Below, in pieces: positions 3,298 through 33,619 of a stretch of 42,314 nt of DNA. This DNA comes from Methanobacteriota archaeon. Its GTDB lineage: Archaea; Hydrothermarchaeota; Hydrothermarchaeia; Hydrothermarchaeales; BMS3B. Position numbers and translations under genes: made by a program. The first letter of the stretch is position 1, and every line of letters starts with the position of its first letter. The DNA lies in contig JAADFX010000121.1 in the NCBI GenBank assembly GCA_013152685.1, positions 1-42,314 on the forward strand, given 5' to 3'. Below the pieces are notes generated by a model. That model did not search any database. It was not told where the DNA came from and saw nothing but the letters and a program-made list of their open reading frames with translations.

Positions 3298-3347
3298 ACA
3301 GGTGTGGCAGTGTGAGCTCAGCTCCTGCTTTTCGGCCTTCCGGGGGT

Positions 3348-17700: not shown

Positions 17701-18096
17701 CTTACGTCAGAGGGCTGGAAGGAGGTAGCTGTCAGGAGGGCGGGTGTGCTCAACGGGACCCTGCTGTACGAGCTTGTGCTTCACGAGCCCGGGCGGTATG
17801 CTGTGGTTGCCTCGCCGCCCATTGCTGGAGCCGACCGCCTCGTGGATGAGGAGAAGCCCGAGTGGAGGTTCATCCCTCCCGGCACCGGAGCCGCGGGCGG
17901 TGGAGCGGGGGAGGTGAAGGAGGAGCCCGGGGTTTCAGCTCCTTCGCCCCCATCACCCGCGCCGGAGAACGGCAGGTCTGCGGGGTCCCCGCAGGAGGAG
18001 AGGGGTGGAATATGCGGTCCCACCCTTCTGCTTCTAGTCTCCCTTGTCCCGCTGCTCGGCGCCAGGCTTCTGCGTCAGCCTCAGCCTGCCGAGTAG
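14734..18096 (+). CDS. Large surface protein: right-handed beta-helix (NosD/PbH1-like), multiple Ig-like repeats, PGF-pre-PGF-like domain, C-terminal TM anchor
   Basis: Signal peptide MRACSALLLILLLVGVVRA. Beta-helix turns (NNSIFG, GNTVAGNFV, NIFYNNYF) and DLDGDGIGDTQLPY. Repeated ~95-aa modules (...SPRDGAAYNVSTLPLEV...WTYSLDGGANTSFTPNTTI...; ...SPADGALYSTAQLLINA...WLWSLNGSQNQSFTPPAVV...; ...SPANATYADTRVPLRV...WSYRLNGGPEVGFTPNTTI...). Gly7 linker. C-terminal GGICGPTLLLLVSLVPLLGARLLRQ. Confidence 0.85.
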   Translation: MRACSALLLILLLVGVVRADVIQVTSSSGCVAANATFSDPGEAVLNSGANDTIILCPGVYELSSLTIDKPLKIAGHLRGTAVLNLSTPGYSNRISILADGVELRNLTVVSGGVNVYALYIRGRNITVEDVAVEDGFWYGFYIVSSRNVVLKRVRVRNMAEAALEVRDTTGLILEDSTLVRESSTSSQYTGRYVALYNVSGSTIRNNSIFGVVRDRSDGYDSGFAIYLNSSSGNTVAGNFVRRVSYCIFFDDPSSGNIFYNNYFECGTPPCRDNLGGVNHYNTSRRAGLNIVGGGTLQGNYWGGLLPYSGSDLDGDGIGDTQLPYNATKPQDGVTYILGGGDWGPLIKQRETSPPVVVSVNLLPDQEVATCTDLNLTVTSYAERIEACTLELDGRQLPMNVSGGSYIYYCSYRLCPADFSGGYLPYRVTVRDSANNTADSGYRGLLVNASPALILIHSPRDGAAYNVSTLPLEVGASDGVSQWTYSLDGGANTSFTPNTTITAGEGSHLLEVYARDSAGYLIYRNSSFTVDLTPPSISLTSPLNGSIYTTRNVTLNGTSTEEVSWSYVLNGRSGYPSGLPASLSADEGANRLLVRAVDRAGNAAVAEVSFTVDTSPPTAASSAGSSVRVDVNSSYNLSWRLYDNLAGGYYRLLLNGSPLVDWRPWSNATAVEAAVDTSRLVEYVYTLEFNDSAGWLAVSRVVVDVIDPSPPVINITSPADGALYSTAQLLINATADRAVHTWLWSLNGSQNQSFTPPAVVNLTSDGTYVLDIWANSTSGAMGHASVSFSVDTTPPAVVIASPANATYADTRVPLRVSAGERVLNWSYRLNGGPEVGFTPNTTIAAAAGQNHLVVYALDSAGNRGSASVYFTVSPPSPSPGGGGGGGAKQSTRRLQLVLKDAEAGGYTRLEVERWNISEVLVKPRHTVYYGELVLELLEAPPEAELEGEVYLSFRLVTRPGMLEEARIRFGVDEVWLRRLNLSPEDVGALYLTSEGWKEVAVRRAGVLNGTLLYELVLHEPGRYAVVASPPIAGADRLVDEEKPEWRFIPPGTGAAGGGAGEVKEEPGVSAPSPPSPAPENGRSAGSPQEERGGICGPTLLLLVSLVPLLGARLLRQPQPAE

Positions 18097-18666
18097 CGCT
18101 CTGAGGAAGCTCCTGCTGCCCCTCCCGTTGGTGGCATACACCTTCTCAGCGCCCGAGCTGAATACGGTGCCCAGGCAGCTCTCACAGAAGAGCAGCGACT
18201 TTCTGTCTATCTCATCCACGGTGCTGGAGAACTTCATGTTGCACTCGCTGTTCTCGCAGTGCACCATGCCCAGGGTGTGCCCCAGCTCATGCAGCGCCTC
18301 CTTGAGCAGCCTCTCCAGGAACAGCTCCCTCTCCCATTCCCGGCCGTGCCGGGCATCCCGGAGTCGGAAGGGGGATATAACCGCCCACCTGCCCCCCAGC
18401 GCCGCAAGGCCGAAGATGTAGTCAACCCCCGCGACGGTGATGTCCCTGTCTATCACGGCGAGCACCCTCTCCGCCGCGGTGGGGCGTGAGGCCAGGGTGT
18501 CCAGGAGGTGGTCTGCCAGCACCTGCCCCCTGGAGTTGAAGCGGAGGGGCACCTCCACCGGAGGCGAAACCACAACCTCACCGAAGAACTCGGCCAGCCT
18601 GTCCCTGAGGTACCGCAGCCACTCGTCCTCAACGCAGCCAATGGGTAGTATCTCGAGCACCGTCAC
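18034..18666 (-). CDS. amzA: Archaemetzincin (peptidase M54)
   Basis: HELGHTLGMVHCENSECNMKFSSTVDEIDRKSLLFCESC matches the archaemetzincin signature HExxHxxGxxxCxxxxCxM...CxxC. Typical N-terminus MTVLEILPIG. The 3' tail overlaps the convergent 14734..18096 gene by 63 nt. Confidence 0.85.
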   Translation of the reverse strand: MTVLEILPIGCVEDEWLRYLRDRLAEFFGEVVVSPPVEVPLRFNSRGQVLADHLLDTLASRPTAAERVLAVIDRDITVAGVDYIFGLAALGGRWAVISPFRLRDARHGREWERELFLERLLKEALHELGHTLGMVHCENSECNMKFSSTVDEIDRKSLLFCESCLGTVFSSGAEKVYATNGRGSRSFLRALLGRLRLTQKPGAEQRDKGD

Positions 18667-18689
18667 AGATATACTCTATCTGCTTCACG

Positions 18690-18712
18690 ATTTAAAAATT
18701 TTTTTATATAAG
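18690..18712. promoter_or_regulatory. Shared AT-rich bidirectional promoter (tttaaaaatttttttatata) between amzA and the beta-helix/CWB2 gene
   Basis: Lies 24-44 nt from ATG 18666(-) and 20-40 nt from ATG 18731(+). Both transcripts would be (nearly) leaderless. Confidence 0.4.
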
Positions 18713-18730
18713 CTTGGAAAATATTTATCC

Positions 18731-20590
18731 ATGAGACACCTCCCCCTGCTCCTGCTGCTGCTCCTATCCCTTCCGGCGGCATTTCCGGCGACGGTGTGTC
18801 CCACGGGGTGCGACTACTCCTCCCTCCAGGAGGCGGTTTCCTCTGCCGCGGAGGGGGAGGTTATACTGGTGAAGGGGGGCAGCTATTCTGTCAATCTGGT
18901 GATAAACAGGAGCCTGACGGTGGTGGGCGAGGGCGGTGTGCTCCTCACGCCGGGAGATAGCAGGCTACCTGTGGTGTACGTGGTGTCCTCCGCCAACGTC
19001 ACCCTCAGGGGGCTGGGCATCGACGGCGCAGGACAGAGCTGCGTGGAGGTGGAGCTGTCACGCGGCGTGAGGCTTGAGGAGCTTGAGCTGAGGTCCTGCC
19101 TCTACGGGCTGAGGGTATCCGACTCCTCGAGGCTCGAGGCGGGGGCGCTTACGGTGGAGGGCGCCTCCTTTGGCGTTGAGGTTCAGAACACCACGGGGGT
19201 GAGGCTCGAGGGGCTCACCCTCAGGTCCCCGACTGTGGCGGGGGTAATCCTCTCCGGTAGCAGCGGCTGCTACCTGGGGAAGAGCAGCATACTCCCTGCT
19301 GGAGCTGCCGGCGGTCTCTATCTTCAGAATTCGGACAGCTGCACCATCTCCGAGGTGCTGGTGAGCGGCGGCGGCACGGCGGTTTCGCTTGACGGCTCCT
19401 CCGGGAACACCCTGAGGGGCATCAGGATAGCAGACTCCTCCACCGGCTTTGAGCTTTCAGGCTCCAGGGACAACACCATAACGGGCAGCTCTGTTTCGAG
19501 TGCCGGCGTCGCCGTGTACCTCAAAAACTCCCGGGGGAACCTGCTCTACGGGAACGACTTCACCTCCGGTGGTCCCCAGGCGGTGGTGGACGATAACCCG
19601 AACCTGTGGAACAGCAGCACCGGCAACTACTGGCGGGACTACGGGGGCAGGGACGCGGATGGCGATGGCTTTGGGGATGTGCCCTACGTTATAAACTCCC
19701 TGAATGTGGACCACCTGCCTGTGGTGAGGCCCTTCTTCGCCTTAGCCACCTCCTCGCCGCCCCCGCCTGCGGGGGGAGGCGCCGGGAAGAGGAGGGACCC
19801 CCTGGCTGCGGGCGAGTTTTTCAGGCTGGATGAGGAGCTTCTACTCAGCATACTGGACTACTTCGACGTCAGGGGTAGGGTGTACTCGGTATCCCCGGCT
19901 GCGGGCGCCGCCCTCCTCGCCATCAGAGACAGGAGTCTGTTTCCTGTGACGGGCGCCGGGGAGGTGGACTCCAGGCTGGGCGCTCCCGCGGAGTGGTCGG
20001 GCGGGGACTACAGCCTGGTTGTGGAGGAGGTGGGCAGCTCCTTCACCTTCTCGGAGGACGTGGTGGTGGCGCGGGGGGACATAGGCGCTGATGCGGTATC
20101 TGCGATAGCCTACGCCAGGGCGAGGAGGATACCCCTGCTCCTGGTGGAGCCCGGGCGCACCCCGGCCGAGGTGAGGGGGCTGATTGAGCGGCTGGGCGTC
20201 CGGAGGGTGGTGATAGTGGGCGGACCACGGGCGGTTTCCCCGGCTGTGGAGCGGGAGCTCGCCTCCCTGGCTGAGGTTGTCCGCATATACGGCGAAACCC
20301 GGGTGGAGACCTCCATCAGAATGGCGCAGGCGCTGGAAGGTGTCCGCGGCACCCCGAGGCTGCTGCTGGTGCAGGACGGCTGGCGCACTTCTCCCGGGGC
20401 TGCGATACTCTCCGCCCTGTATGAGGCTCCAGTGCTCTACGTGAGGGGCGACGAGCTCCCACCCTCTCTCGAGGAGTACCTAAAGGAGCTCTCGGGCAGG
20501 GGTGTGGCGGTGGTTTTTGCGGGGGTTTCCCCACCGGTGGAGTCGGCGGTGAGGGAGATACTCAAAGGTCAGAGAAGCCCCACTCCCTGA
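18731..20590 (+). CDS. Secreted beta-helix (NosD-like) protein with C-terminal cell-wall-binding-repeat-2 (CWB2)-like domain
   Basis: Start moved from the track's 18437 (which would overlap amzA antisense) to ATG 18731, giving MRHLPLLLLLLLSLPAAFPA. Beta-helix repeats and DADGDGFGDVPYV. The C-terminal half has CWB2-like motifs (RIPLLLV, VVIVGGPRAVSPAVE, RIYGETRVETSIRMAQ, APVLYV). Confidence 0.8.
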   Translation: MRHLPLLLLLLLSLPAAFPATVCPTGCDYSSLQEAVSSAAEGEVILVKGGSYSVNLVINRSLTVVGEGGVLLTPGDSRLPVVYVVSSANVTLRGLGIDGAGQSCVEVELSRGVRLEELELRSCLYGLRVSDSSRLEAGALTVEGASFGVEVQNTTGVRLEGLTLRSPTVAGVILSGSSGCYLGKSSILPAGAAGGLYLQNSDSCTISEVLVSGGGTAVSLDGSSGNTLRGIRIADSSTGFELSGSRDNTITGSSVSSAGVAVYLKNSRGNLLYGNDFTSGGPQAVVDDNPNLWNSSTGNYWRDYGGRDADGDGFGDVPYVINSLNVDHLPVVRPFFALATSSPPPPAGGGAGKRRDPLAAGEFFRLDEELLLSILDYFDVRGRVYSVSPAAGAALLAIRDRSLFPVTGAGEVDSRLGAPAEWSGGDYSLVVEEVGSSFTFSEDVVVARGDIGADAVSAIAYARARRIPLLLVEPGRTPAEVRGLIERLGVRRVVIVGGPRAVSPAVERELASLAEVVRIYGETRVETSIRMAQALEGVRGTPRLLLVQDGWRTSPGAAILSALYEAPVLYVRGDELPPSLEEYLKELSGRGVAVVFAGVSPPVESAVREILKGQRSPTP

Positions 20591-21857
20591 GGTGGACGTG
20601 CTCCTCACCGCTCCTGAGCCTCTCTATCCTCTCCTCCGTCAGGGCGATGTACCTCCTCAGGTCCTCCTCCAGCCTTGCCACCCTCTCCAGGTCTATCCTG
20701 GAGCCCAGGTCGCCACCGCCTCCCAGCGAGTCCCTGAAGCGTCTGTACTTCTCCAGGCTCTTCTCCATTATTCCGCGCAGGCTGAAGCCACCCAGGAGGA
20801 TGAGCACATCCACTGTGCTCCTTCCGGGCTCTGCGACCAGGCTGGTGTACCTGAGCACTCCCTCCCCTGCCAGGTGCCGGGATGCCCACTCCCTGGCCAC
20901 GTCCTCCAGGTCCTCCTGGGTAATCTCGCCGCCTGTCACCCTCTCCTCGGGTGCCGCAACCACGATGTAGGCCATCGTGCCGGTTCCCCTCTCCACAGGC
21001 GCCATGGCGTTGCCGGAGGCGCTCTCCAGCATCGCCTCCAGGCTCAGCACCTCAGGGTCGTTCCCCAGGCTGAGGCAGGGGGTGAAGTGCACAGTGCCGA
21101 TGTTGCTGGGCAGCTGGTAGTAGTCGGCAATGTCTATAGTGGCCCTGGACCACCGGCTGCTGGGCGCAATGAGCAGGTGTATTGTCCTTATAATCTCCTG
21201 GTTTATCCTGTGGTATCGCTCCGCCCTCTGCCCCCTCCTGATGCCCAGCACCCTCTCCACCTGGGAGTTGTCCACCAGTATCACCAGGGCGGCGTTCTGC
21301 TCACCCTCGTAGCGCAGGAGCCTCGCAAGGCCGCAGATGGCGTTGAAGTGCCTCTGGGGCCCCTCGAAGTCGTAGGGGAGGATTCCCAGCGCCAGGAAGT
21401 TGTTGACCCTCTCCAGCCCCTGTCCCGGGTTCCTCCTCACCCTGTGGATGATGTAGGGCAGCGAGCCGTTCCCCGTGCCTCCGCCCAGGGTGGTGATCCC
21501 CAGAAGCACATCGCTGCTCCTGAGCCTGAGGTCAGCGATGTACCTCCTGATGCTGTCGTAGTCGTCCATCGCCTCCCTCTCACCCAGCACCCAGTTGTTC
21601 CCCGCCCCGCTCGGAGCCCTTCCGAAGATGCAGACGCGCCTCCTCCTTATCCTCTCGAACTCCTTCCTGAGCTCCGGCTCTGAGGCAAATATCTGCTCCA
21701 GGGGCGCCTCCGGCCTCAGGTCTGCCGGCGTAGTGTTCAGCAGCAGCACCCTGTCCTCAATTGCGGGGTTCCTGTACTTTGCGTAGTAGAGGAAGGCTAT
21801 CCTGTTGGCGCCCTGCCCGCTTGCGATTATTCCCCACCGCGTTAGCATTTTCTTCAA
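20562..21857 (-). CDS. Divergent tubulin/FtsZ-superfamily GTPase, CetZ-like (protein B of the pair)
   Basis: IIASGQGANRI (T1-like), GAGNNW (T3-like), GGGTGNG (nt 21465-21485, signature), ILPYDFEG...LVILVDNSQV, TIDIADY (T7-like), and a C-terminal domain ending VDVLILLGGFS. The TTG start overlaps the upstream stop (TTGA); an alternative ATG lies at 21848. Confidence 0.75.
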   Translation of the reverse strand: MKKMLTRWGIIASGQGANRIAFLYYAKYRNPAIEDRVLLLNTTPADLRPEAPLEQIFASEPELRKEFERIRRRRVCIFGRAPSGAGNNWVLGEREAMDDYDSIRRYIADLRLRSSDVLLGITTLGGGTGNGSLPYIIHRVRRNPGQGLERVNNFLALGILPYDFEGPQRHFNAICGLARLLRYEGEQNAALVILVDNSQVERVLGIRRGQRAERYHRINQEIIRTIHLLIAPSSRWSRATIDIADYYQLPSNIGTVHFTPCLSLGNDPEVLSLEAMLESASGNAMAPVERGTGTMAYIVVAAPEERVTGGEITQEDLEDVAREWASRHLAGEGVLRYTSLVAEPGRSTVDVLILLGGFSLRGIMEKSLEKYRRFRDSLGGGGDLGSRIDLERVARLEEDLRRYIALTEERIERLRSGEEHVHLREWGFSDL

Positions 21858-23218
21858 CCCTTCAGCCTGAGCACCTTGCCCTCCAGCACCGCCTCCGGAT
21901 GGGACTCGCTGTACAGCCTCAGGAACTCCTCGGCGTAGCGCACCCCGAGTTCGCCCGCCGAGACCCTGCCCGCCTCCGCCAGCTTCCGGGATATAATCCT
22001 CTCCACCGCGGGGTAGTTCCTGGCTATCTTGACCTCCCTGTACCTCCTGGAGAAGTCTGCGGCTAGGGCGGTGAGCACCTCCAGTGCGCTGCCCGCAAAC
22101 TCCCTGAACTCCCTCCGGGGGTCCAGCTCCGAGATTCTACCCCCGGCGCCCGTCCCCTCCACCGCCCTTCCGAGCTTTCTGAGTTCCTCGTCCAGCACTG
22201 AGATCTCCCTTGCCATCGCCCTGGCGAGCTCCAGGGTGAGCCTCTTCGCCTCCTGGCGGATGCTCCTGAACTCAGCCAGCTGGCCCGGGTCTGTGTAGCT
22301 CTTGGCACGCTCCCTGAGCTCGCGGAGCACCTGCCGTTCCCTCTCAAAGCCCCGGCTCAGCTCCAGCATCCTGTCCAGGTAGGCCAGCACCTCCTCTCTG
22401 GCCTCAAGGAAGGGGCGCGTCAGGTAGCTGGAGACCTCACTCCTGACCCTGAGTAGCCTGTAAACGCTCTCAACCTTCTCCCTCTCCCGCTTTACCCGCT
22501 CCAGCTCCTCCCTGAGGTGGGAGACGTCTGCCACCCCCTCGGCTGTGGTGAGCAGGAACTCGGCCTCCCGAATGCACCTCTCCACCAGCCTCCCGTACTG
22601 CTCCTCACCGCGCCTCCGCTTCTCCAGCAGGTCCTGGAGGCTGGCGGCAGGCATGGATGCAACCCTCCTAAGCTCCTCGTACTCCTCCCTGACGGAGAAG
22701 CCGCCCTCCACCAGCATCTGGGCGGCATCCAGCAGCTCCTGCATGCGCCCAGCCACGGCCTCACCGTAGCTCGCCACCACCAGCGACTCCAGGCTGCGCA
22801 GCTGCTGCTCCACCTTCCTGCTCTCCAGCTCTATGGCGGTCAGGGTCACCCTGTCGATTTTCCCCTCGTTTATCTGGAACTCCCCCGTAAAGAATCCCCT
22901 GGATATCAGCCCCCGCTTTATCCCGGCCAGGTCCTCCATAAAGGGCTCCACGTCCACCATCTCCGACGCTGCCCTGAGGTTCCTCTCCAGCACCTCCACC
23001 GCGTCCTTAATCTTGTTCAGAATTTCAATCTTCAGCAGGACCACAGTTCTGTCGGTTTTGCTCTTCCACCAGGTGTAGACCAGGCTTGCCAGGAGAACGC
23101 TTAGGATCACGCCCACGGCGAGGTAGGACACAAAGCTTATCCCGAAGGTGAGGAGCAGGGCGACCCCCACCCCCAGGGTGAGGAGCACCACGAGTGCGGT
23201 CACCGCGTACTCATTCAT
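21854..23218 (-). CDS. Membrane-hairpin (2 TM) coiled-coil protein, hypothetical; candidate filament tether
   Basis: MNEYAVTALVVLLTLGVGVALLLTFG and FVSYLAVGVILSVLLASLVYTWW, then ~380 aa of E/R/L-rich heptad-like sequence. A possible small globular C-terminal end (ARNYPAVERIISRKLAEAGRVSAGELG...). The ATG overlaps the upstream stop (ATGA 23215-23218). Confidence 0.8.
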   Translation of the reverse strand: MNEYAVTALVVLLTLGVGVALLLTFGISFVSYLAVGVILSVLLASLVYTWWKSKTDRTVVLLKIEILNKIKDAVEVLERNLRAASEMVDVEPFMEDLAGIKRGLISRGFFTGEFQINEGKIDRVTLTAIELESRKVEQQLRSLESLVVASYGEAVAGRMQELLDAAQMLVEGGFSVREEYEELRRVASMPAASLQDLLEKRRRGEEQYGRLVERCIREAEFLLTTAEGVADVSHLREELERVKREREKVESVYRLLRVRSEVSSYLTRPFLEAREEVLAYLDRMLELSRGFERERQVLRELRERAKSYTDPGQLAEFRSIRQEAKRLTLELARAMAREISVLDEELRKLGRAVEGTGAGGRISELDPRREFREFAGSALEVLTALAADFSRRYREVKIARNYPAVERIISRKLAEAGRVSAGELGVRYAEEFLRLYSESHPEAVLEGKVLRLKG

Positions 23219-24417
23219 GCTTCCGCCTCACTCTCCAGAAAGTCCTTCTCGTACTCCTCCAGCACCCTCAGCGAGATGTCCTTGTACTGGCTCGCCAGCT
23301 GGCTCAGGGTTCTGAGCCTCGATATCTGGTTGGGACGGTAGGTGAGCAGCACCGTGGCTGTTGCCAGGTTGCGCTTCGTCAGAGCCACGCCGAAGTGGGT
23401 CTCCCCCAGGCGGGAGTGCTCCTCCATGACCTGCTTCGCCATGCTGGTGTTTATCCTCCCGCGCTTTGTCAGGTAAACCGGAGGTATGCGGAGCAGCACT
23501 AGGTTCTTCTCAGCGTGCTCAGGCCTGAGCTCCGCCACAGTCAGCTTCATGAAGCTCCTGTACAGCAGGGAGATCACATCTATCTCCCGGTGCCCCCCGA
23601 AGGGGAATATGTAGTGCAGGAAGTTCCTTGTCCTCTCGGAGGCCCTCCCCAGGGCGGCGAATCCGTGGCGGGTGCGCTTTCCGAAGGAGAAGCTGGTTGC
23701 CGCGATCATGTCCTTGAGGTCGATCACCGGTGCATAGCCCTCATACCTGGAGGGGTCCACCCTCTCTATGGCGGTGCCTATAAGTATGTCCCTTATGCTC
23801 CTCGCCACATACTCGTTGTACCTCTGGAAGAGGCTCTCGGCGCTCTCCGCGTGGGCAAGCTTCTGGTTGTCCACCAGGATTACGGAGTCCACATTCTCTA
23901 TGAGCAGGTTGAGGCTCTCCACGGAATTTTTTGCTGTCAGCCCCCCCTCGTGGGTTGCCGGAAGAACCACAACGGCTATCACGGGAACTCCCATCTCCTT
24001 GAGCACCCCTGCCACCACGGGTCCGGCACCGCTTCCCGTCCCGCCTCCCAGGGCGAAGGCGACAAATGCCACGGGCACACCCACGCCGCTGTCCCCCTCC
24101 CCCACCCTGGTTCTCTCCACAATCACCTCCTTCAGGTTCTCCCTGAAGCGCAGGGCGTCCTCCTCGGCCCTGGCGCGGTTCTTCCCGTAGCCGCCGCTGA
24201 CGAAGTGCTCAAAGCCGTGCATTGTTCCGGGTATGAACCCCCTGTCCCGGGACATCCCCACCCAGTGCTCCCTCCCGAGGTTCTTGAGCGTCTGAAGGTC
24301 CAGGGTGGCTGAGTTGATTGCTATTGGCACCGCTATCTTGAACATCACCTCGTCGTAAAAAGCAGCATCAATTATGGCGCCGCCGCACTGTCCAACACCG
24401 ATAAACACGTAGGGCAT
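23215..24417 (-). CDS. CetZ-like tubulin/FtsZ-superfamily GTPase (protein A of the pair)
   Basis: MPYVFIGVGQCGGAIIDAAF (tubulin-like GQCG T1 loop), FALGGGTGSGAGPVVAG (signature, nt 24028-24048), VVLPATHEGGLTAKNS...VILVDNQ, VIDLKDM (T7-like), and an FtsZ_C-like end (KNLVLLRIPP...THFGVALT...ATVLLTY). Start moved from the track's 24468 to ATG 24417; the extension lies in the AT-rich promoter. Confidence 0.8.
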   Translation of the reverse strand: MPYVFIGVGQCGGAIIDAAFYDEVMFKIAVPIAINSATLDLQTLKNLGREHWVGMSRDRGFIPGTMHGFEHFVSGGYGKNRARAEEDALRFRENLKEVIVERTRVGEGDSGVGVPVAFVAFALGGGTGSGAGPVVAGVLKEMGVPVIAVVVLPATHEGGLTAKNSVESLNLLIENVDSVILVDNQKLAHAESAESLFQRYNEYVARSIRDILIGTAIERVDPSRYEGYAPVIDLKDMIAATSFSFGKRTRHGFAALGRASERTRNFLHYIFPFGGHREIDVISLLYRSFMKLTVAELRPEHAEKNLVLLRIPPVYLTKRGRINTSMAKQVMEEHSRLGETHFGVALTKRNLATATVLLTYRPNQISRLRTLSQLASQYKDISLRVLEEYEKDFLESEAEA

Positions 24418-24443
24418 TCTTCCACCGGACCTCGGAGACCAGC

Positions 24444-24475
24444 TTTTATATTTAATTACCAAGGTCAATATAAAA
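24444..24475. promoter_or_regulatory. Bidirectional promoter: perfect 9-nt inverted repeat of TATA-like elements (ttttatatt 24444-24452 / aatataaaa 24467-24475)
   Basis: The only AT-rich stretch in the 67-nt spacer between ATG 24417(-) and ATG 24485(+). The distances fit short or absent leaders on both sides. Confidence 0.45.
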
Positions 24476-24484
24476 CATTACTGC

Positions 24485-25429
24485 ATGGGCAGGCCGGTGC
24501 TCCTCCTCGTTTTTATCCTCCTCCTGCCGGCGGTGGCGGCGCAGGACTGCGGCAGTGTGCTCACTGAGCTGAGGGGCTTCACCTCCCCCCTTCTCTCCTC
24601 ACAGCCGGAGTTCGCCCAGGTGAAGCAGGATGTGCTCCTCCTCCTGTACTCCCGGGAGCGCGGGGCATGCGGCCCGGATATGGCAGGCTTCGCCTCGCTG
24701 ACGCTTGAGTACCTGCGGGAGGCCCACGAGGCGTACCTGCTCATGAGCTCCGGGGTGCTCAGCGAGCGCAGGAGCGGCGTGGAGAGGCTGGTGGAGGCGG
24801 CGAACCTGCTGGCTGAGATGGAGTCCTACGCATCGACGCTTGGTCCTGTGGCGGAGGATGCGGTGTTCGCCGCCAGGGAGGGCAGGCGGGGGCTGCTGCT
24901 TGCCCAGGGCATGAGCTCCGAGAGGATGGCGGAGGAGTCCCCGGGCACCCGGGAGAAGCTGGAGCACCTTGAGCTGGCGATAATGAGCTATGAGGCGGCG
25001 GACGCCCTCCAGGCGAAGAGCCTTGAGGTCAGGAGGCAGAACCTGGAGGAGAGGTACACCGCCGACATGGCAGAGGCGGCGCGGCACCTGGAGGAGGCGT
25101 CCATCAGGCTCCGCAGGGCGGTTGAGCTCCGCGACGCCTTTCCCGGCTTCATAGACGCCTACGCCCTTGCCAGGGAGGCGAGGCTGGAGCTCCTCAGGGC
25201 TGGAGAGCTGTACTCTCTCCACAGGGAAGAGGAGATGCTCAGGCAGGTGGAGAGCAGCCTGTCCACAGCCCAGGAAATCTACACCACCTCCCGCCGCAGA
25301 ATACTCCTGCTCTTTGCCCTTGTGGCGGCTGTTCTCACCTCCCTCTCAGTCTACATACAGAGCAGGATCCGGAGCTGGGAGCGGGACAACCACGAGTGCA
25401 GCCTGGGAAATGAGCTGGTGGGTGTGTGA
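24485..25429 (+). CDS. Secreted helical protein with C-terminal TM anchor; hypothetical
   Basis: Signal peptide MGRPVLLLVFILLLPAVAAQ, ~250 aa of A/E/L/R-rich helical sequence, TM ILLLFALVAAVLTSLSVYI, and a short cytoplasmic tail. The stop is 1 nt before the next ATG. Confidence 0.7.
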   Translation: MGRPVLLLVFILLLPAVAAQDCGSVLTELRGFTSPLLSSQPEFAQVKQDVLLLLYSRERGACGPDMAGFASLTLEYLREAHEAYLLMSSGVLSERRSGVERLVEAANLLAEMESYASTLGPVAEDAVFAAREGRRGLLLAQGMSSERMAEESPGTREKLEHLELAIMSYEAADALQAKSLEVRRQNLEERYTADMAEAARHLEEASIRLRRAVELRDAFPGFIDAYALAREARLELLRAGELYSLHREEEMLRQVESSLSTAQEIYTTSRRRILLLFALVAAVLTSLSVYIQSRIRSWERDNHECSLGNELVGV

Positions 25430-25430: not shown

Positions 25431-27440
25431 ATGCGCTGCCTCCTCCTTCCACTGCTGGTTCTCCTCCTCCTGCCTGCCGCTGCGGCGCAGGTTGAGGCGA
25501 AGTTCAGCTACACCGATGTGGACTTCTACTTCAATGCACCCAGGGACGAGGTCAGCCACTTTGAGGTCAACCTCACCCTGAGGCTGTACAACTCCGACAA
25601 CGAGAGCGCCGCCATCGTTTCCGACCTGAAGGCGGAACTCAGGGGGGAGGCCGCCCAGCGGGGTGTCCAGGTGCTTCTGGAGAAGAGCTACGTGAGGGTG
25701 GAGCCGGAGAGCGTCTCCTACGTGAGGGTCACCTTCAGGGCACCCTCCTCCCTGGCGCAGGGGAGCTATGATGCGGAGCTCAGCGTCAGGGGCAACTACA
25801 CCTACGTAACCAAGGGCGGCGCCTACCTGCTGGTGCACCAGTTCTACATAACGGTGAATGTGGAGCATCCGCCGCCAACCCTGGAGGCCAGCTGGGACAT
25901 GGCCAGGTGGGGCCAGCTGAAGGCGGGGCAGAGCTTTGAGCGGAGGCTGACTGTGCGGGAGGTCTTCGGCTATGCGGATGCGGAGAATGTTACTGTGTAC
26001 CTCTCCAAGACGGGTCCGGTGGAGCTGAACTACTCGCCCCACCTCGGGGACATCCCCGCCGGCGGCTCCAGGCACATGAGCGTTGAGGTGATGGTGCCCT
26101 TGAGGAACCTGGAGCCCGGGGACTACCGGGTGACACCGCGGATTGTCAGTGACGCGGGGGTTGATGTTGCGGAAGCGGAGGGGGCGAACTACACAATTCC
26201 GGAGCCCAGCATGACCCTTTCCACCACCGTTGTGGACTTCGGCAAGCTCACCTTCGAGGCAGGGAGGGATTCCGCAACCCGGAGCGTGGTTGTCTCGGAG
26301 GCGGGGGGCTACACCCCCATAGAGGGCCTGGAGGTAAGGCTGGAAGAAGGTGAGGAGGGCTGGATATCCACCGCCGGTGTGGACTACATTCCCCCGGGGG
26401 GCAGCGTCTCCCTGAACCTCTCGCTGCTTCTCCCGCCGGATGCGAGCCTGGGGAAGAAGAGCTGGGTGTTCCTGCTCACCACCAGGTACGCGGGGAGTGC
26501 GCGGCTGACGGCGAGAGCCACTGTGTACTTCCCGGGGCTGGAGGAGGCGGAGCGGCGGCTCGCGGAGCTGAAGGACCCCAGATACGCCGGCGCCATCGAC
26601 AACCTGAAGAACCTGATAGCCGCGTCCAAGGAGGTCACGGAGCTCAGGGAGATTGCCATGGTAATGGCTGTTTACAGCGGCGTTGTGTCCTTTGTGGACA
26701 GCTTCTCCTCCCCAGAGAACAGGACGCTGGAGGAGAGGGTTGAGATGCTGCTCCTCACCAGGAGCAGCCTGAGCAGGGCGAAGGCGGGTGCGCTTTCCCT
26801 CCGGGACGAGAGCCTCAGGAGCTATGCAATTCCCGCCGTGGAGACTCTGGAGGAGGCCTGGAGGGGCGAGGCCCTTGCGGTTGCAGAGGCCATCCAGGAG
26901 CGCCTGAGGAGCGGCGCCGACTACCGGAGCGCCGCCCTGGACTACGGCAGGCTCAGGACCCTCTACGCCCTGCTGGGTGAGGAGGAGCGCTCCCGCGCCT
27001 ACGCCTCCCGCCAGGAGGAGATGGAGGCAGCCTACTACGGGGCGCTCAGTGAGGCGGCACGGCTCCTGAGGGAGTCGGAGGATGAGTTCTCGGCGGCGCG
27101 GGCGCTGACCCTGAACCTCAGGGAGGCCTCCTTTGTGCTCAGCCCCTTCCGCTATGAGCGCGTGGTCGCCCACTACAGGAACGCCATATCCCTGGCGGAG
27201 AGGGCGGCAGCGCTGCTCAGGAGCGCGGGTGAGGCGGAGGAGGCGGAGCTTGCGGAGAGGCGGGCGGCTGAGCTGAGCAGGACGCTGCGCGACCTGGAGA
27301 GGGCCTTCGCCCTCTACCTGGCGCTTCTCACGGCCTTCTTCCTGTGGTTTGTGGCGAGGGTGACCCTGGGCCTTATTCGCTGGGTCAGGGACTCTGAGGT
27401 CCTCTCGGAGGGGGATGTGGTGCTGGGCGGCGAGACCTGA
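25431..27440 (+). CDS. Secreted protein: N-terminal beta-rich (Ig/CARDB-like) domains, helical domain, C-terminal TM anchor; hypothetical
   Basis: Start moved from the track's 25167 to ATG 25431, giving MRCLLLPLLVLLLLPAAAAQ. Beta-rich first ~400 aa, then a helical A/E/R-rich region, TM YLALLTAFFLWFVARVTLGLI, and a short tail. Confidence 0.75.
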   Translation: MRCLLLPLLVLLLLPAAAAQVEAKFSYTDVDFYFNAPRDEVSHFEVNLTLRLYNSDNESAAIVSDLKAELRGEAAQRGVQVLLEKSYVRVEPESVSYVRVTFRAPSSLAQGSYDAELSVRGNYTYVTKGGAYLLVHQFYITVNVEHPPPTLEASWDMARWGQLKAGQSFERRLTVREVFGYADAENVTVYLSKTGPVELNYSPHLGDIPAGGSRHMSVEVMVPLRNLEPGDYRVTPRIVSDAGVDVAEAEGANYTIPEPSMTLSTTVVDFGKLTFEAGRDSATRSVVVSEAGGYTPIEGLEVRLEEGEEGWISTAGVDYIPPGGSVSLNLSLLLPPDASLGKKSWVFLLTTRYAGSARLTARATVYFPGLEEAERRLAELKDPRYAGAIDNLKNLIAASKEVTELREIAMVMAVYSGVVSFVDSFSSPENRTLEERVEMLLLTRSSLSRAKAGALSLRDESLRSYAIPAVETLEEAWRGEALAVAEAIQERLRSGADYRSAALDYGRLRTLYALLGEEERSRAYASRQEEMEAAYYGALSEAARLLRESEDEFSAARALTLNLREASFVLSPFRYERVVAHYRNAISLAERAAALLRSAGEAEEAELAERRAAELSRTLRDLERAFALYLALLTAFFLWFVARVTLGLIRWVRDSEVLSEGDVVLGGET

Positions 27441-27448: not shown

Positions 27449-29842
27449 CTAGAGGTGGCTCCCCCGCAGCCTCATCAGGACCTCCTCGCTCTTCAGCATG
27501 TGCTCCAGGCACAGCAGCAGGTAGCTGGCGAAGCCCAGGAGCGCCTCCTTTTGCTCTGGTGAGGCGCTCTCCGCCCTCTCCAGAAGCTTTTTTGACACCC
27601 GCCACAGGGATGCGGGCGGGTGGATGGAAAGCTCTCCGAGCAGCGAGGTGAGCCTTTCGTCCGCCTCCTGAAGCCGCCTCTCCACCTGCGCGCTGTCCAC
27701 CTCTCCGCCTGTGGAGAAGGGCGGGGGCTCACACCCCTCGGCGCTGCGCATTCTTGAGGAGGCGGAGACCGCCAGATTCTTCCAGTCCTGCATCGCCTCG
27801 ATGAGTAGCTCTACCGCATACCCGGCCGCCTCCACGGCGCCCATTCCCCGGAGCAGGGCCATCTCCTCCGCTCCCCTGAGAACCTCCTCCGCGGCTCTCC
27901 GGAAGAACACGGGCAGGCACGGGTCGTCTACAGAGATGCGCTCGCAGCTCTCGGCAACACTCCGCCTCAGCTCCCCGAGCGTGGCCCTCACCTCCGGCGG
28001 GAGCTCACCCGCAGGCCTGAGCTCCACTTGAACCTCCCCTTCTCCCGGCGGAACCTCCACCTCGCGGGGGGCGAAGCCCTCCTTCTCCACCCTCAGCAGA
28101 GACGGCGCCTCCCCCGCGGGGAGCTCTGCCCTGCCGGAGGCGTCCGTGGTGCTGCCCGCATCGCCCATCCTCACCGCTGCCCCGCTGATTGGCCCGCCGC
28201 CTGGCCCTGTAACCCTTACCCTGAGCCTTCTCTCGGCAGCCTCCACCCCGGCGCCTGCCTCCTGCCTCCTTCGCCTGAGGAGCAGGGCTCCGCCACCTAG
28301 CAGCAGAAGGGCAGCCAGCGCGTATATGAGCCGGGCATCAGCCGCGGGCGCTGAGGTGGAAGCCTTCCCGGTGGGTACCCTCAGAATTCTCCCACCGGAC
28401 AGCACAAGGGCAGCGCTTCCATCAGGCGCCAGGGATATGTCCACCACCCTCGCTAGTGGGCGGAGCGTCCACACCGGCTCGCCCTCCCGGGTCATCAGGT
28501 CCACCCTCCCGGGCGAGGCGAGGAGCAGGTACCCTCCCCCCGCGTCCATTACGGTGGCGTTGTGGTCGAGGGGCAGGGTGCGCACCACTCTGCCGCCGGA
28601 GAGCATCACCACCTCATCCCCCAGCAGCAGGTACAGGACATCTCCCCCTGCTTCGAGGTCCAGGATGCTTGTGTTGAGATTCACCCTCCAGAGTGGGGCG
28701 CCCTCGCCGGAGAGCATCACCACCCTGCCACCGGCAGCAGCGGCGATTCCCTCCCCCGAAACCTCCAGCAGCTCGGGGGTGAACTCGGGCACCTTCCTCC
28801 ACAGCAGTGCTCCGGCGGTGTTGTACAGGTGCAGCTCGCTCCCGGCGAAGAGGGCTATCCTTTCCCTGGAGGCGGCGAGCAGCACCACCTCCCCACCGGT
28901 TGAGGCGTTCCACTGCCTGGCTACCCCGGCGTAGTGGACGATTTTATCCCCCTCTGCGACCACAAACCCCCCATCGTAGGCGGATACCAGCGGTGCAGGG
29001 GAGGTGGCCACCCTGCCCAGCAGCTCTCCGGAGCTGCCCAAGAGGTAGAGCTCGCCCCTGCCCACCGCCACCATGCCCCCGGAGGTCGCCACCACCCGGG
29101 TGATGTTGCCCGGCGGTAGTATCCAGCTTCCCGGGGGTGCGGTGGAGGGCTTCACCAGGGTGATTACCCTGCTGGCTGAGGCGGTTCTGTTGCCAAGGCT
29201 TATGTTCACCACCAGCGGGTACCTGCCAGGTGGCAGTCCGGAGGTGTCCCAGCGGTAGGGCAGGGTGCTGCTCTTCAGGCTTCCGTTGATGTACACCGCC
29301 GGGCTGGCTCCCGGTGTGTGGAGGGCGTCCACCACCAGCACATCTCCCTCAGAGAGGACCTCCTCGAGGGGGGAGGTTATCTCCACATACAGGGCCGGGG
29401 AGGTGTTCAGCACCACCACCTCCCCGTGGGCATAGGCGGTGGCGCACCCGTCTTTAAATGTGAATCTCACCGTCAGGGCGTAGCTTCCGGGGCTGGGAGG
29501 GGCAAAGAAGCCGAAGGAGGAGGCCACCTCCTGCCCGGGAATCGCGCTGCCGGAGTACAGCCGTGCCAGCGGCTGCTCGCTCCAGTTTCCCAGGAGCTCC
29601 GCCTCCACCCGCGTGGCGGCGGCCTCTCCGAAGACCCAGCCTATCCTCCCCTCAATCCTCTGCAGCGGTGCCGCGGCGATGCTCCCCTGCTGCCCCCCAG
29701 CCTCAGGGTTCAGGTCGAAGACGGTTAGGCTCATGAGCTCCGTGCTGCTCCCCGGGCTGAGGTGGTACACATCCCCCCTGCATGAGGCGTGCAGCGGTGG
29801 AAGAAGGAGCAGCAGCATCACAAAGGCTGGTGCCATCCGCAT
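27449..29842 (-). CDS. Single-pass membrane protein: extracellular Ig-like plus PQQ-like beta-propeller, TM, cytoplasmic CarboxypepD_reg-like beta domain and helical domain
   Basis: Signal peptide MRMAPAFVMLLLLLPPLHAS. About seven ~38-aa repeats (e.g. GELYLLGSSGELLGRV, SELHLYNTAGALLWRK, RVVMLSGEGAPLWRV, RVDLMTREGEPVWTL). TM LIYALAALLLLGGGALLLRRRRQ. Then VRVTGPGGGPISGAAVRMGDAGSTTDASGRAEL...LLRVEKEGFAPREVEV and ~200 aa of helical sequence. Confidence 0.75.
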   Translation of the reverse strand: MRMAPAFVMLLLLLPPLHASCRGDVYHLSPGSSTELMSLTVFDLNPEAGGQQGSIAAAPLQRIEGRIGWVFGEAAATRVEAELLGNWSEQPLARLYSGSAIPGQEVASSFGFFAPPSPGSYALTVRFTFKDGCATAYAHGEVVVLNTSPALYVEITSPLEEVLSEGDVLVVDALHTPGASPAVYINGSLKSSTLPYRWDTSGLPPGRYPLVVNISLGNRTASASRVITLVKPSTAPPGSWILPPGNITRVVATSGGMVAVGRGELYLLGSSGELLGRVATSPAPLVSAYDGGFVVAEGDKIVHYAGVARQWNASTGGEVVLLAASRERIALFAGSELHLYNTAGALLWRKVPEFTPELLEVSGEGIAAAAGGRVVMLSGEGAPLWRVNLNTSILDLEAGGDVLYLLLGDEVVMLSGGRVVRTLPLDHNATVMDAGGGYLLLASPGRVDLMTREGEPVWTLRPLARVVDISLAPDGSAALVLSGGRILRVPTGKASTSAPAADARLIYALAALLLLGGGALLLRRRRQEAGAGVEAAERRLRVRVTGPGGGPISGAAVRMGDAGSTTDASGRAELPAGEAPSLLRVEKEGFAPREVEVPPGEGEVQVELRPAGELPPEVRATLGELRRSVAESCERISVDDPCLPVFFRRAAEEVLRGAEEMALLRGMGAVEAAGYAVELLIEAMQDWKNLAVSASSRMRSAEGCEPPPFSTGGEVDSAQVERRLQEADERLTSLLGELSIHPPASLWRVSKKLLERAESASPEQKEALLGFASYLLLCLEHMLKSEEVLMRLRGSHL

Positions 29843-29874
29843 GGAGATAATTTGTTGCGGGTGCAATATGAAGC

Positions 29875-30651
29875 TTAGCACACCTCACCCTCGGCGAAGC
29901 CCTGCCGCAGGTGGGTTATCCTCACCCTCACCTCATCCCCCCTCCGGGCGCCTCTTACGAATACCCTTGTCCCCTTTATGCGGGCTATTCCGTCTCCCCT
30001 CCGACTCTCCCCGGCGATCTTCACCCGGTACACCTCACCCCTCCTGAGCCTGGAGAACCCCCTGCCTATCAGGTACACCTCGGCACTTTCACTGCGGCTC
30101 GCTCTGGGCTTGGTGAGCTTAACATAGCCGAAGCACCCCCTAACCCTCTCCACCAGGCTCTGCAGGAGCTCCCCCTGGAAGACCTTCAGAAGCAGATTGC
30201 CCCCCGGCACCAGGTGCTCCTCTGCAATCTCCAGTGCGAGTTCGCAGAGCTCAATACTCCTGGCGTGGTCTACGTCCCAGATGCCGCTTATGTCTGGAGA
30301 CGCGTCGCTTATCAGGGCATCGCACTCGGGTATGAGCTCCCTGAGCCTCTCCCTGACCTCGGTGCTCCTGAAGTCGCCCCTGAGCAGCACCACATTTTCG
30401 TATTCCAGGGGCTCCACCGCCTGGAGGTCAACCCCCACCACAAGCCCAGAGTCGCCCACAGCCTCCGCGGCAACCTGGGTCCACCCGCCTGGGGCGCACC
30501 CCAGCTCTATCACCCTGTAGCCGGGCCTGAGGATTCCAAAGCGGCGGTTGAGCTGGAGCAGCTTGTACGCCGCCCTGGAGCGGTAGTGCTCCTTCTTCGC
30601 CCTCCTGTAGTAGTAGTCCCTCTTTCTCTCCTTCAGCCAGCGCTTTCCCAT
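29875..30651 (-). CDS. rlmE: 23S rRNA 2'-O-ribose methyltransferase RlmE/FtsJ fused to a C-terminal TRAM domain
   Basis: MGKRWLKERKRDYYYRRAKKEHYRSRAAYKLLQLNRRF...VIELGCAPGGWTQV...DVLISDASPDISG (FtsJ SAM-MTase motifs). C-terminal GEVYRVKIAGESRRGDGIARIKGTRVFVRGARRGDEVRVRI is the TRAM domain. Start taken at ATG 30651 (typical MGK... N-terminus), not the track's 30729. Confidence 0.85.
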   Translation of the reverse strand: MGKRWLKERKRDYYYRRAKKEHYRSRAAYKLLQLNRRFGILRPGYRVIELGCAPGGWTQVAAEAVGDSGLVVGVDLQAVEPLEYENVVLLRGDFRSTEVRERLRELIPECDALISDASPDISGIWDVDHARSIELCELALEIAEEHLVPGGNLLLKVFQGELLQSLVERVRGCFGYVKLTKPRASRSESAEVYLIGRGFSRLRRGEVYRVKIAGESRRGDGIARIKGTRVFVRGARRGDEVRVRITHLRQGFAEGEVC

Positions 30652-32389: not shown

Positions 32390-33619
32390 ATGATGGTTGA
32401 CACAGAATTTATAAAAATGCTTCTTATCTCTGCTCTTGTGGGCGGTCTTCTCGGCGTGGAGAGGGAGCTGAAGGTTCAGGTTATCGCAGGCACGCGCACC
32501 TTCATGCTGGTCTCCATTACAGGCACCCTGAGCGTCTATCTTGCCGCGCAGCTGGGCGTTGAGCTGGTGGTGAGCATCGCGACCCTCGGGGTGGTGCTCC
32601 TGGTCCTGCTGCTGGGGGTAATCAAGAACTTCAGGACCTTTGATGTGGGAATAACCACGCCCGTCGCCTTCTTCCTGGCGTACCTCATAGGGGTACTGGT
32701 GGGCCTCGGGCTGTACATCGAGGCGGTTACCGCCAGCATCCTGGTCACCAGCATCCTGGTGTTCAAGAAGTACACCACCATCCTCTCAGAGGCGCTGGGA
32801 CACGAGGAGATGCGCTCCGCCATGGAGTTCGGGTTAATCGCCTTTGTGCTCTACCCCGTGGCGCCCGACTATGCGGTCGACCCCCTGGGAATTCTGAATC
32901 CCAGGCACCTCCTGCTGGCGGTGATAGTGGTCTCCACCACAGGCTTTGCCGGCTTTCTTGTGCTCAGGTTCCTGGGCTCGGAGCTCAGCTCCGCGGTGGC
33001 CGGAGCCATGGGCGGCCTGGTAAGCCTGCGCGCAACAGTGGGCACCTTCTCCCGGGAGGCCTCCAGGCGGGGAGAGATCGCACGGGACGCCCTGGGTGGA
33101 ATGCTCCTGTCCTGCTCCTCTGGCGTGCTGCGCAGCCTGCTCCTTGCCGGCCTGCTGAGCGTTGACCTTCTCAGGCAGCTGTGGCTTCCTGCAGGTGTGA
33201 TGGCTGCCGTCACCGCGGCGGCGGTGCTCCTGCCCGGCAGGAGCGGGACGAAGGGCGCGGTTGAGCTGCCCCTGCGCTCACCCTTTGCGATTCTGCCCAG
33301 TCTGCGCTTTGCCCTCCTTTTCTCTGCGGTCGCGGCCGTGGCGGGGTATCCCGGGACGCCCCAGTGGGGCGTCTATATCGCCTCCCTCATCGGCGGCGGC
33401 CTGGGGGCGGCTGCGACGGTGGGCGCCCTCGCCTCCCTGGTGGAGCTCGATCTGCTAGAGCCCTCGGCCGCCGCTCCTGCCGCCCTGCTCGCCCTTGTGG
33501 GCGGCGGCATGGCAGCCGCCCGCACTGCGCTTCTCGGGAACCGGAGGCTGGGGGTGCAGTACTCAGCTGGGGTGCTCCTGGGCGCCGCCGCCGGCTTCGC
33601 CGCCCTGCTGCTGGCGTAG
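32390..33619 (+). CDS. MgtC/SapB-family membrane protein with DUF4010-type C-terminal extension
   Basis: N-terminal ALVGGLLGVERE motif typical of MgtC. About 10 hydrophobic helices over 409 aa. Confidence 0.7.
   Translation: MMVDTEFIKMLLISALVGGLLGVERELKVQVIAGTRTFMLVSITGTLSVYLAAQLGVELVVSIATLGVVLLVLLLGVIKNFRTFDVGITTPVAFFLAYLIGVLVGLGLYIEAVTASILVTSILVFKKYTTILSEALGHEEMRSAMEFGLIAFVLYPVAPDYAVDPLGILNPRHLLLAVIVVSTTGFAGFLVLRFLGSELSSAVAGAMGGLVSLRATVGTFSREASRRGEIARDALGGMLLSCSSGVLRSLLLAGLLSVDLLRQLWLPAGVMAAVTAAAVLLPGRSGTKGAVELPLRSPFAILPSLRFALLFSAVAAVAGYPGTPQWGVYIASLIGGGLGAAATVGALASLVELDLLEPSAAAPAALLALVGGGMAAARTALLGNRRLGVQYSAGVLLGAAAGFAALLLA

Follow-up and report, generated by a model that had tools for sequence, protein, structure and literature searches.

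Two diverged tubulin-superfamily GTPases and their membrane partner as a candidate accessory module in Hydrothermarchaeota and other archaea

Background

We know of no function for archaeal tubulin homologues beyond FtsZ and CetZ, and the locus described here raises the question of what two such proteins, encoded on either side of a membrane protein, might build. It lies on contig JAADFX010000121.1 of a Hydrothermarchaeota genome (GenBank assembly GCA_013152685.1; 1.8 Mb, 96 % complete). The whole stretch of DNA that was analysed, positions 1 to 42,314 of this contig (42,314 nucleotides), is referred to as the window, and the closest named database relatives of its proteins belong to Candidatus Pyrohabitans (phylum Hydrothermarchaeota). 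Its minus strand encodes the tubulin-superfamily GTPase A (23215..24417; 400 amino acids (aa)), the membrane protein mid (21854..23218; 454 aa) and a second tubulin-superfamily GTPase, B (20562..21857; 431 aa if read from the TTG at 21857, 428 aa from the ATG at 21848).

A first-pass annotation had described A, mid and B as one operon of two divergent CetZ/tubulin-type GTPases around a coiled-coil membrane protein, and had suggested a heteropolymer of A and B with mid as its dedicated tether. The three open reading frames (ORFs) are present as described, and the motif positions are correct in the translations (GGGTGSG of A at nucleotides (nt) 24028-24048, GGGTGNG of B at 21465-21485). Chance can be set aside for this arrangement, since A reaches 81.7 bits against the Pfam family PF00091 (gathering cut-off 33), the profile of the B family matches archaeal FtsZ with an E-value of 3e-15, and dozens of genomes show the same gene arrangement. 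We consider it somewhat probable that A and B, together with the integral-membrane partner mid, belong to a conserved accessory module that forms a membrane-spanning apparatus between cytoskeleton and cell surface, and not a division machine.

Distribution across archaea

Genes of the B family were found in 94 of 185,579 species-representative genomes, in lineages comprising Hydrothermarchaeota, Micrarchaeota, Altiarchaeales, ANME-2, Methanoperedens and many cultured Halobacteria. For 80 B loci that could be retrieved, the surroundings were scored with profiles of A, B and mid. In Hydrothermarchaeota, A, mid and B are contiguous in every locus whose contig covers the stretch. In Micrarchaeota, Methanoperedens and every halobacterial locus, mid is located immediately upstream of B; A lies on the opposite strand at a distance of 1-3.5 kb in Micrarchaeota, and in Methanoperedens and all Halobacteria a third tubulin is followed at a distance by A and then by a long form of mid adjoining B. 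B stands alone in ANME-2, where it adjoins cdhC, and in Altarchaeum. In five such lone-B genomes, each encodes exactly one strong A (E-values of 1e-70 to 1e-166) and one mid (1e-86 to 1e-104) elsewhere.

The same pattern was obtained when whole groups of genomes were considered. Among 201 Halobacteria, the same 22 genomes have B, mid and A, and the remaining 179 have none of them; the 22 carry one copy of each gene, save for a split mid match in one genome. Within the class of one ANME-2 genome (G001; 121 genomes), B and mid are both confined to that genome, and in PLSDB, A and B are found on the same five plasmids. In the phylum of the window itself, B occurs in 24 of 38 genomes and is absent from a sister genus (96-98 % completeness) and from one whole family. 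The association first noticed in a single sequence is kept far beyond this genome, with perfect co-occurrence in the loci, in the genomes in which the genes are unlinked and among the 201 Halobacteria. Since this co-occurrence was seen in every genome set examined, and given the distribution of the genes, A, mid and B behave as one accessory unit.

The whole set of six genes described below is present on plasmid pHS2 of Halobacterium salinarum R1 (OE_RS12075 to OE_RS12025; L100, NC_010369.1 167065-192258), on which the B homologue is annotated as a hypothetical protein only. A PQQ-like beta-propeller protein and an ATP-binding protein adjoin the module on this plasmid. The third tubulin of the halobacterial loci (L018, L019, L073-L100) is very diverged, has a length of 528-540 aa and is followed by a membrane protein of its own. 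A repeated tubulin-plus-mid cassette was considered for this pair and rejected, as hhalign detected no relationship between mid and the membrane partner of this tubulin (probability 1.6 %). The same loci contain small membrane proteins of 83-93 aa and others of about 350 aa between A and mid. On the Altarchaeum-type contigs (L008 4261-5658 (-) and L045), the lone B has as its neighbours a phage-sheath-like protein (PF04984) and a multi-pass CARDB membrane protein of 1068 aa.

Family assignment of A and B

Taken alone, B scores 29.4 bits against PF00091 and thus remains below the cut-off of 33. The profile of the B family, built from 32 sequences, also matches CetZ1 (3e-14) and gamma-tubulin (2e-9) among the solved structures, and its matches to FtsZ, CetZ and gamma-tubulin chains span E-values of 3e-15 to 1e-9. 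An AlphaFold2 model of B with a mean predicted local distance difference test (pLDDT) of 89.8 and a predicted template modelling score (pTM) of 0.91 shows the complete order of tubulin elements in a two-domain fold, up to the two long C-terminal helices. In Foldseek, this model was matched with a probability of 1.00 to CetZ, FtsZ, OdinTubulin and eukaryotic tubulins, with template modelling scores of 0.86 to CetZ1 (by target) and 0.73 to OdinTubulin (by query). The motifs of B are T1 ASGQGANR, T3 GAGNNW, T4 GGGTGNG (residues 125-131) and T7 TIDIAD (nt 21123-21137). Across the family, S13, G14 and G16 of T1, the tubulin-like GAGN of T3, GGGTGNGS and the T6 asparagine are invariant or nearly so, and N130 of GGGTGNG and both T7 aspartates, D242 and D245, are invariant. 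The recognition of B as a genuine, strongly diverged member of the tubulin superfamily is therefore borne out by the family profile, the fold, the Foldseek matches and a profile comparison with A. This comparison gave a probability of 98.6 %, an E-value of 1.3e-15 and 21 % identity, compared to an E-value of 1.4 by BLASTP.

At its C-terminus, B carries a conserved family tail, L-x-(E/K)-W-G-F (residues ~420-431, window ~20565-20600), which in Micrarchaeota is replaced by a W-containing motif and a lysine-rich tail. It is located outside the interface predicted for mid below.

A is less diverged in its motifs, with T1 GVGQCGG, T4 GGGTGSG (residues 124-130) and T7 VIDLKD (nt 23710-23724), and ends in an acidic tail. 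In the alignment of its family, G9/G12, GGGTGxG and N184 are invariant or nearly so, D236 is invariant and D233 is nearly invariant. The family profile matched CetZ structures with E-values between 3e-24 and 6.5e-22 (3zid 3e-24, 4b46 2e-23) and could be aligned to CetZ1 across positions 1-323. An FtsZ_C-like end had been read from the sequence of A, but neither the Pfam family FtsZ_C nor CetZ_C matched it. By motifs, including the T4 signature loop of the superfamily (GGGTG[ST]G), and by profiles, both A and B are assigned to the tubulin/FtsZ superfamily.

Some metagenomic proteins of the A family have extra domains (P0126 and P0133), in one case a C-terminal TrmB/MarR-like winged helix (weak, E-value of about 1e-3) and in the other a GTPase domain interrupted by a zinc ribbon, whose 28.6 bits exceed the cut-off. 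The A proteins of Micrarchaeota have a C-terminal extension of their own, in which weak PEGA/CarboxypepD_reg signals do not exceed the Pfam cut-offs; A may thus possibly be attached separately.

Seven tubulin-family loci were identified in the genome, namely two FtsZs, three loci in tandem on another contig (C105), A and B. Two of the C105 proteins carry CetZ_C (PF21011; 229 and 95 bits), and no match of this domain to A or B was found even at E-values up to 1. When homologues of A were searched with HMMER, the E-value dropped from 1e-50 for the last member of its family to 1e-14 for the first CetZ. In a quick IQ-TREE phylogeny of the kind that had been proposed, with FtsZs as outgroup and eukaryotic tubulins left out, A (21 sequences) and B (16) formed separate diverged clades with a support of 100, both outside the clade of PF21011-bearing CetZs (support 97); this tree does not settle the deep branching among A, B and CetZ. 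Internally, the two clades of A and B look similar in their branching. For these reasons a CetZ identity was rejected for A and B. Of the earlier description of A as CetZ-like, it holds that CetZ is the nearest solved and named relative; a CetZ proper it is not, since it lacks CetZ_C, falls outside the CetZ clade and coexists with true CetZs on another contig.

Membership in FtsZL1/FtsZL2 was rejected as well. The model PF13809 (Tubulin_2), which we take to cover FtsZL1-type proteins, reached 11.3 bits for A with a cut-off of 27 and did not match B, and the neighbourhood is a different one, with none of the VWA, OmpA and extra GTPase domains of FtsZL1 neighbourhoods detected by Pfam among the neighbours of the module. 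By these profiles and neighbours the locus matches neither an FtsZL1-type nor any other characterised operon, a possibility that had been named at the outset as one that would undo the proposal. Judged by sequence, A and B are two families of the tubulin superfamily that are neither FtsZ, CetZ nor FtsZL1.

The second tubulin cluster of the genome, on contig C105 (L016 4434-8628 (-)), consists of a CetZ (CetZ_C 229 bits), a tubulin-family protein of 338 aa that lacks CetZ_C, a protein of 272 aa without a family and a CetZ-like protein (CetZ_C 95 bits), and adjoins a 1202-aa NosD/beta-helix surface protein.

In tubulins and FtsZ, the acidic T7 residues complete the active site of the neighbouring subunit and are needed only for hydrolysis across the polymer interface. 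Since the T7 pair is retained in both families, established FtsZ/tubulin enzymology suggests that A and B are most likely each a polymerising GTPase able to activate the hydrolysis of its neighbour.

The membrane protein mid and its predicted contact with B

Two hydrophobic segments at the N-terminus of mid, residues 5-23 and 29-47, have mean Kyte-Doolittle values of 2.67 and 2.46 and correspond to the hairpin helices 2-25 and 27-54 of the AlphaFold2 model (transmembrane (TM) hairpin at nt 23057-23215). They are directly followed by the K/R-rich sequence WWKSKTDR, so that both termini are placed in the cytoplasm by the positive-inside rule. The model (pLDDT 89.9, pTM 0.68) shows the cytoplasmic part of about 400 aa as antiparallel helical bundles and a small C-terminal alpha/beta domain, i.e. 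a helical stalk of about 350 aa followed by a winged-helix-like domain at residues ~397-454 (nt 21857-22030). The latter is the most conserved cytoplasmic segment of mid, and residues 400-454 superpose on winged-helix domains with a Z-score of 7.1 and a root-mean-square deviation (rmsd) of 2.0 Å over 53-55 residues. The two TM helices and the cytoplasmic location of the rest were thus recognized correctly at first reading, and the single long coiled coil that was described there has given way to bundles and a winged-helix-like domain.

No Pfam or NCBIfam family was found for mid. Foldseek against the PDB returned nothing at E-values up to 0.001, and a structure atlas search only unnamed Bathyarchaeota proteins (template modelling score 0.49). 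Outside the C-terminal domain, mid resembles generic helical bundles only. Structural matches to PRC1 and EzrA were weak, with rmsd values above 10 Å, and were not used; for EzrA, Z-scores of 7.5-7.9 and rmsd values of 10-31 Å are within the noise for helical proteins. A word-based search reached only close relatives of mid, and an exhaustive profile search of 1.84 billion representatives was needed to define its family, which comprises 92 cluster representatives. These fall into forms of ~450-480 aa and ~690-720 aa. At least one long form (locus L004) has a CarboxypepD_reg domain after the mid core, and another (L019) had no Pfam match.

A complex of B with residues 55-454 of mid was predicted alongside three controls. 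The interface score (ipSAE) was 0.64 for B and mid (0.66, 0.64 and 0.63 in the single runs) versus 0.00 for the best of the controls. Of 80 solved complexes, 58 attain this mark, compared to 2 of 110 mismatched pairs, counts which hold only roughly here due to the use of custom alignments. The runs share at least 97 % of the contacts, with a partner pLDDT of at least 84. The predicted interface is formed by residues 397-412 and 424-428 of mid, within the winged-helix-like domain, and residues 263-282 of B (nt 21012-21071), which cover the end of S7, the S7-H9 loop and H9 according to the order of secondary-structure elements. On the side of mid, the contacts fall within the cytoplasmic segment with the highest conservation (entropy 2.08 versus 2.62). 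In tubulin, the S7-H9 loop corresponds to the M-loop, which is part of the lateral face. The M-loop is also reported to be a functional surface in CetZ1 (bioRxiv 10.1101/2024.04.08.588506). The winged-helix-like domain of mid is hence predicted to dock on the S7-H9 side face of B, a contact that would leave the longitudinal polymerisation faces free. We know of no similar complex. With this prediction and its clean controls, the earlier idea of mid as a dedicated membrane tether gains support, but for B only, the GTPase that the prediction covers.

Associated surface proteins

The locus was initially taken to be a unit of three genes. It has turned out to include at least six conserved ones, and the additional three encode membrane/surface proteins. 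The genes p314 (24485..25429, +) and p680 (25431..27440, +) are transcribed divergently from A-mid-B, and p810 (27449..29881, -) follows on the minus strand. The product of p314 has a signal peptide, a helical ectodomain and a C-terminal TM anchor, with TM segments at residues 1-19 and 273-291, and no Pfam family was found for it. With 669 aa, p680 has the same overall layout, its ectodomain combining an NPCBM_assoc-like beta-sandwich with a helical part. In p810, a signal peptide and a large N-terminal part, which is presumably outside the cell, precede a TM segment (518-536), a cytoplasmic CarboxypepD_reg domain (553-615) and a helical domain. A beta-propeller in p810 is based on a weak Pfam match of its homologue in locus L001 only. 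For the cytoplasmic part, the ESM Atlas gave only generic CarboxypepD_reg/PEGA leads below 0.9.

All three genes accompany A, mid and B on another Hydrothermarchaeota contig (L001). Iterative searches of the fetched loci detected full-length homologues of p314 and p680 in Halobacteria and Methanoperedens. The C-terminal ~290 aa of p810 are homologous to the gene right after B in Micrarchaeota, Methanoperedens, Halobacteria and locus L004, as detected by iterative search and, for loci L003 and L004, directly by BLASTP. Every non-tubulin gene in the clusters encodes a membrane protein.

Gene starts and surrounding genes

A starts at the ATG at 24417. GGTGGA stands before this codon, and the AT-rich TATA-like box AAATATAAAAG is located about 30 nt upstream. 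An alternative TTG ORF from 24468 would cross this box. The overlap of the A stop with the mid start (ATGA, 23215-23218) is real in the DNA. The second overlap that had been described, TTGA at 21854-21857, is likewise present, but as the start of B the ATG at 21848, 9 nt downstream, is more likely, since it agrees with the way in which all homologues begin (M-x-x-T-R-W) and with a database record of 428 aa. From these sequences, B more likely starts 5 nt past the mid stop, and the packing is still tight. The 67-bp divergent intergenic region (24418..24484) contains two AT-rich TATA-like boxes and is itself AT-rich within surroundings of about 63 % GC. Its composition suggests that it is likely a bidirectional promoter for A-mid-B and p314-p680. 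No tRNA genes or Rfam families were found in the window.

Directly downstream of B, two large NosD/beta-helix surface proteins are encoded at 14734-18096 (+) and 18437-20590 (+), one with Ig-like domains and the other with a CWB2 domain. The gene at 18437-20590 is convergent with B, with an overlap of 29 nt at the 3' end of the latter, and an archaemetzincin (Peptidase_M54) at 18034-18666 (-) sits between the two. Further away, an ORF at 3201-8408 (+) encodes a giant multihaem cytochrome of 1735 aa with c7/c3 motifs and an MtrC/MtrF-like domain II/IV (154 bits), a type used in extracellular electron transfer, here in a Hydrothermarchaeota genome. A membrane protein of the MgtC/DUF4010 type is located a few kb from the module both in the window (32390-33619 (+)) and on the distant Hydrothermarchaeota contig L001 (9648-10943), which is probably local synteny only.

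Possible function

In the mechanism proposed for the module, A and B would assemble with GTP into filaments on the inner face of the membrane, and mid, rooted by its hairpin, would hold filaments of B, or mixed filaments of A and B, by the side face of B. The cytoplasmic CarboxypepD_reg and helical domain of p810 would lie in the same layer as the filaments, as would the CarboxypepD_reg extension of at least one long mid form in other lineages. Large domains of p810, p314 and p680 would be exposed on the cell surface and coupled to the filaments, and the module may position or reshape an envelope or surface structure. The module is not the division apparatus, since the genome also has FtsZ1, FtsZ2 and CetZs and since close relatives and about 90 % of the sampled Halobacteria lack the module; it is dispensable and patchy, and some copies are located on plasmids. 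Only tentatively can the apparatus be specified further, as membrane-tethered two-tubulin filaments, possibly an alternating polymer, which would be linked via mid and p810 to surface proteins, with the tether on the M-loop face, in a trans-envelope form common to Hydrothermarchaeota, DPANN lineages, ANME/Methanoperedens and some Halobacteria.

Several observations weigh against the proposed module. The interface residues of B are not conserved above average (entropy 1.82 versus 1.57) and differ in the halobacterial clade, and the score of the B-mid complex is a model's confidence only. The lone B beside cdhC in ANME-2 indicates that physical coupling in an operon is not required. The cellular role is purely inferred from domain architecture.

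How A and B would assemble is a separate question, for which two answers appear about equally possible, neither of them being the expected outcome. A and B could be an obligate hetero-polymer, comparable to alpha/beta-tubulin, BtubA/B and the Asgard AtubA/B, with mid as its tether. Their strict 1:1 co-occurrence, mostly in the same operon, the complete nucleotide and T7 motifs in both proteins and the similar branching of their clades fit this possibility, which is nevertheless doubtful. There is no asymmetry of the alpha/beta type, as the catalytic T7 residues are kept in both A and B (D..D), the two proteins are only ~21 % identical at the profile level with a likeness to which BLASTP is blind, and they are unlinked in ANME-2 and Altarchaeum. 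In addition, Halobacteria pair a third tubulin with a membrane protein of its own that is unrelated to mid, which hints that each partner serves a single tubulin.

Alternatively, A and B may be two homopolymers which share the labour in one machine, with mid anchoring B and another member, e.g. p810 by its cytoplasmic domain, anchoring A. The strict co-occurrence would be equally expected for two cooperating homopolymers, for which archaeal FtsZ1 and FtsZ2 provide a precedent in the literature. The predicted tether touches B only, and mid adjoins B wherever the genes are linked. In Micrarchaeota, A is encoded on the opposite strand, and its extension has the weak signals of a domain type that also occurs in p810 and in long mid. 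Nevertheless, these fused-domain matches do not exceed the Pfam cut-offs, and this arrangement is likewise held with reserve.

It is improbable that A and/or B are non-polymerising GTPase switches that govern the insertion or secretion of the neighbouring surface proteins. The strong divergence of B with its sub-threshold Pfam score and the envelope proteins as sole partners would be compatible with such switches. However, the 'synergy' aspartates of T7 are invariant in B, and in A one of them is invariant and the other nearly so, and the model of B keeps the whole two-domain tubulin fold.

A module of mobile elements or plasmids for DNA segregation or maintenance, like TubZ or PhuZ, is very improbable despite the patchy distribution and the occurrence on haloarchaeal megaplasmids including pHS2 and Natrinema plasmids, since the module is chromosomal in most genomes, the plasmids with A and B are typed as non-mobilizable, all partners are membrane or surface proteins, no TubR-like protein or other partner with a Pfam DNA-binding family was found, B being the predicted target of the winged-helix-like end of mid, and the window has no integrase close to the module. 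Related origins were rejected as well: tblastn in 50,697 phage records gave no match, matches to phage tubulin families in PHROG were marginal (E-values of about 1e-3), and none of the six proteins had a match to a defence family in PADLOC.

For the membrane-spanning accessory module favoured here, the present analysis defines two new tubulin families, a predicted tether with a specific, testable interface and three co-conserved surface proteins. As the module is present in cultured haloarchaea, such as Natrinema versiforme JCM 10478 and Halorubrum persicum, and on pHS2 of the genetically tractable H. salinarum R1, its deletion, tagging and cryo-electron tomography are feasible now.

Relation to known systems

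The tubulin groups themselves have probably been mentioned before. Santana-Molina et al. 2023 (PMC9871819) report 'CetZ-like' proteins in Halobacterota and Altiarchaeota and a halobacterial group 'Halo.Tub' with several tubulin copies in quasi-tandem with coiled-coil neighbours, and they call the origins unclear. Judging from the description, which matches loci L018, L019 and L073-L099, these are probably the families described here. In that work they are a phylogenetic mention only, with no A/B pairing, mid family, co-occurrence, membrane partners or function, and no module in Hydrothermarchaeota or Micrarchaeota. The CetZ survey of 2023 (PMC9856176) lists 'non-canonical' tubulin-superfamily proteins without analysis. 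VNG6260G on pNRC200, named 'cetZ5', is regulated over the growth curve (PMC7439475), but it could not be mapped to the module and is an unverified lead; for 'ftsZ5' in Halobacterium, no literature was found. Since the literature search returned no paper that describes A and B as a pair, defines the mid family or the set of six genes, or assigns any function to them, the suggestion of the first-pass annotation that the module is undescribed holds for pairing and function, and probably not for the tubulin groups as such.

The FtsZL1 and FtsZL2 families (Makarova and Koonin 2010, PMC2875224) resemble the module in that they, too, are diverged GTPases related to FtsZ, for which a role in membrane remodelling by systems of several components has been proposed. 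The neighbourhoods of FtsZL1 contain VWA, OmpA and GTPase genes (PMC2875224). In contrast, the module has no such neighbours, and its GTPases differ by the PF13809 results given above.

FtsZ with its anchors, i.e. SepF for archaeal FtsZ2 and FtsA, ZipA and EzrA in bacteria, shares with the module a dedicated protein that holds a polymer of the tubulin family at the membrane. To our knowledge, SepF for FtsZ2 is the only archaeal anchor of this kind. EzrA is like mid in its N-terminal TM segment followed by a long cytoplasmic domain of helical repeats, but no homology of mid to these anchors was found by Pfam or, for EzrA, by structure. Moreover, known anchors bind the C-terminal peptide of FtsZ, whereas mid is predicted on the globular side face of B, and the module is not universal and is unlinked to division genes.

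CetZ, represented by CetZ1 and CetZ2 of Haloferax volcanii and the Methanosaeta CetZ (PDB 4b46, 4b45, 3zid), is the nearest solved relative of A and a top structural match of B. It is also an archaeal tubulin homologue outside division that is tied to the envelope, and the predicted partner patch of B is at the position of its functional M-loop. CetZ differs in that it is not known to have a dedicated TM partner gene or an obligate paralogue pair, and its gene neighbourhoods are different from those of the module (PMC9856176).

The heterodimeric prokaryotic tubulins, i.e. BtubA/B with BtubC, the Asgard AtubA/B and the Heimdall alpha/beta pair, likewise encode two tubulin paralogues together with a helical accessory protein. 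The accessory proteins of the module are membrane proteins, while A and B stand far from eukaryotic tubulin and have a mutual identity of ~21 % at the profile level. The co-occurrence and co-encoding of paralogues, a trait of heterodimeric tubulin pairs, are found for A and B as well. The module is also a natural case for studying the evolution of paired tubulin paralogues and of lateral-face adaptors outside eukaryotes.

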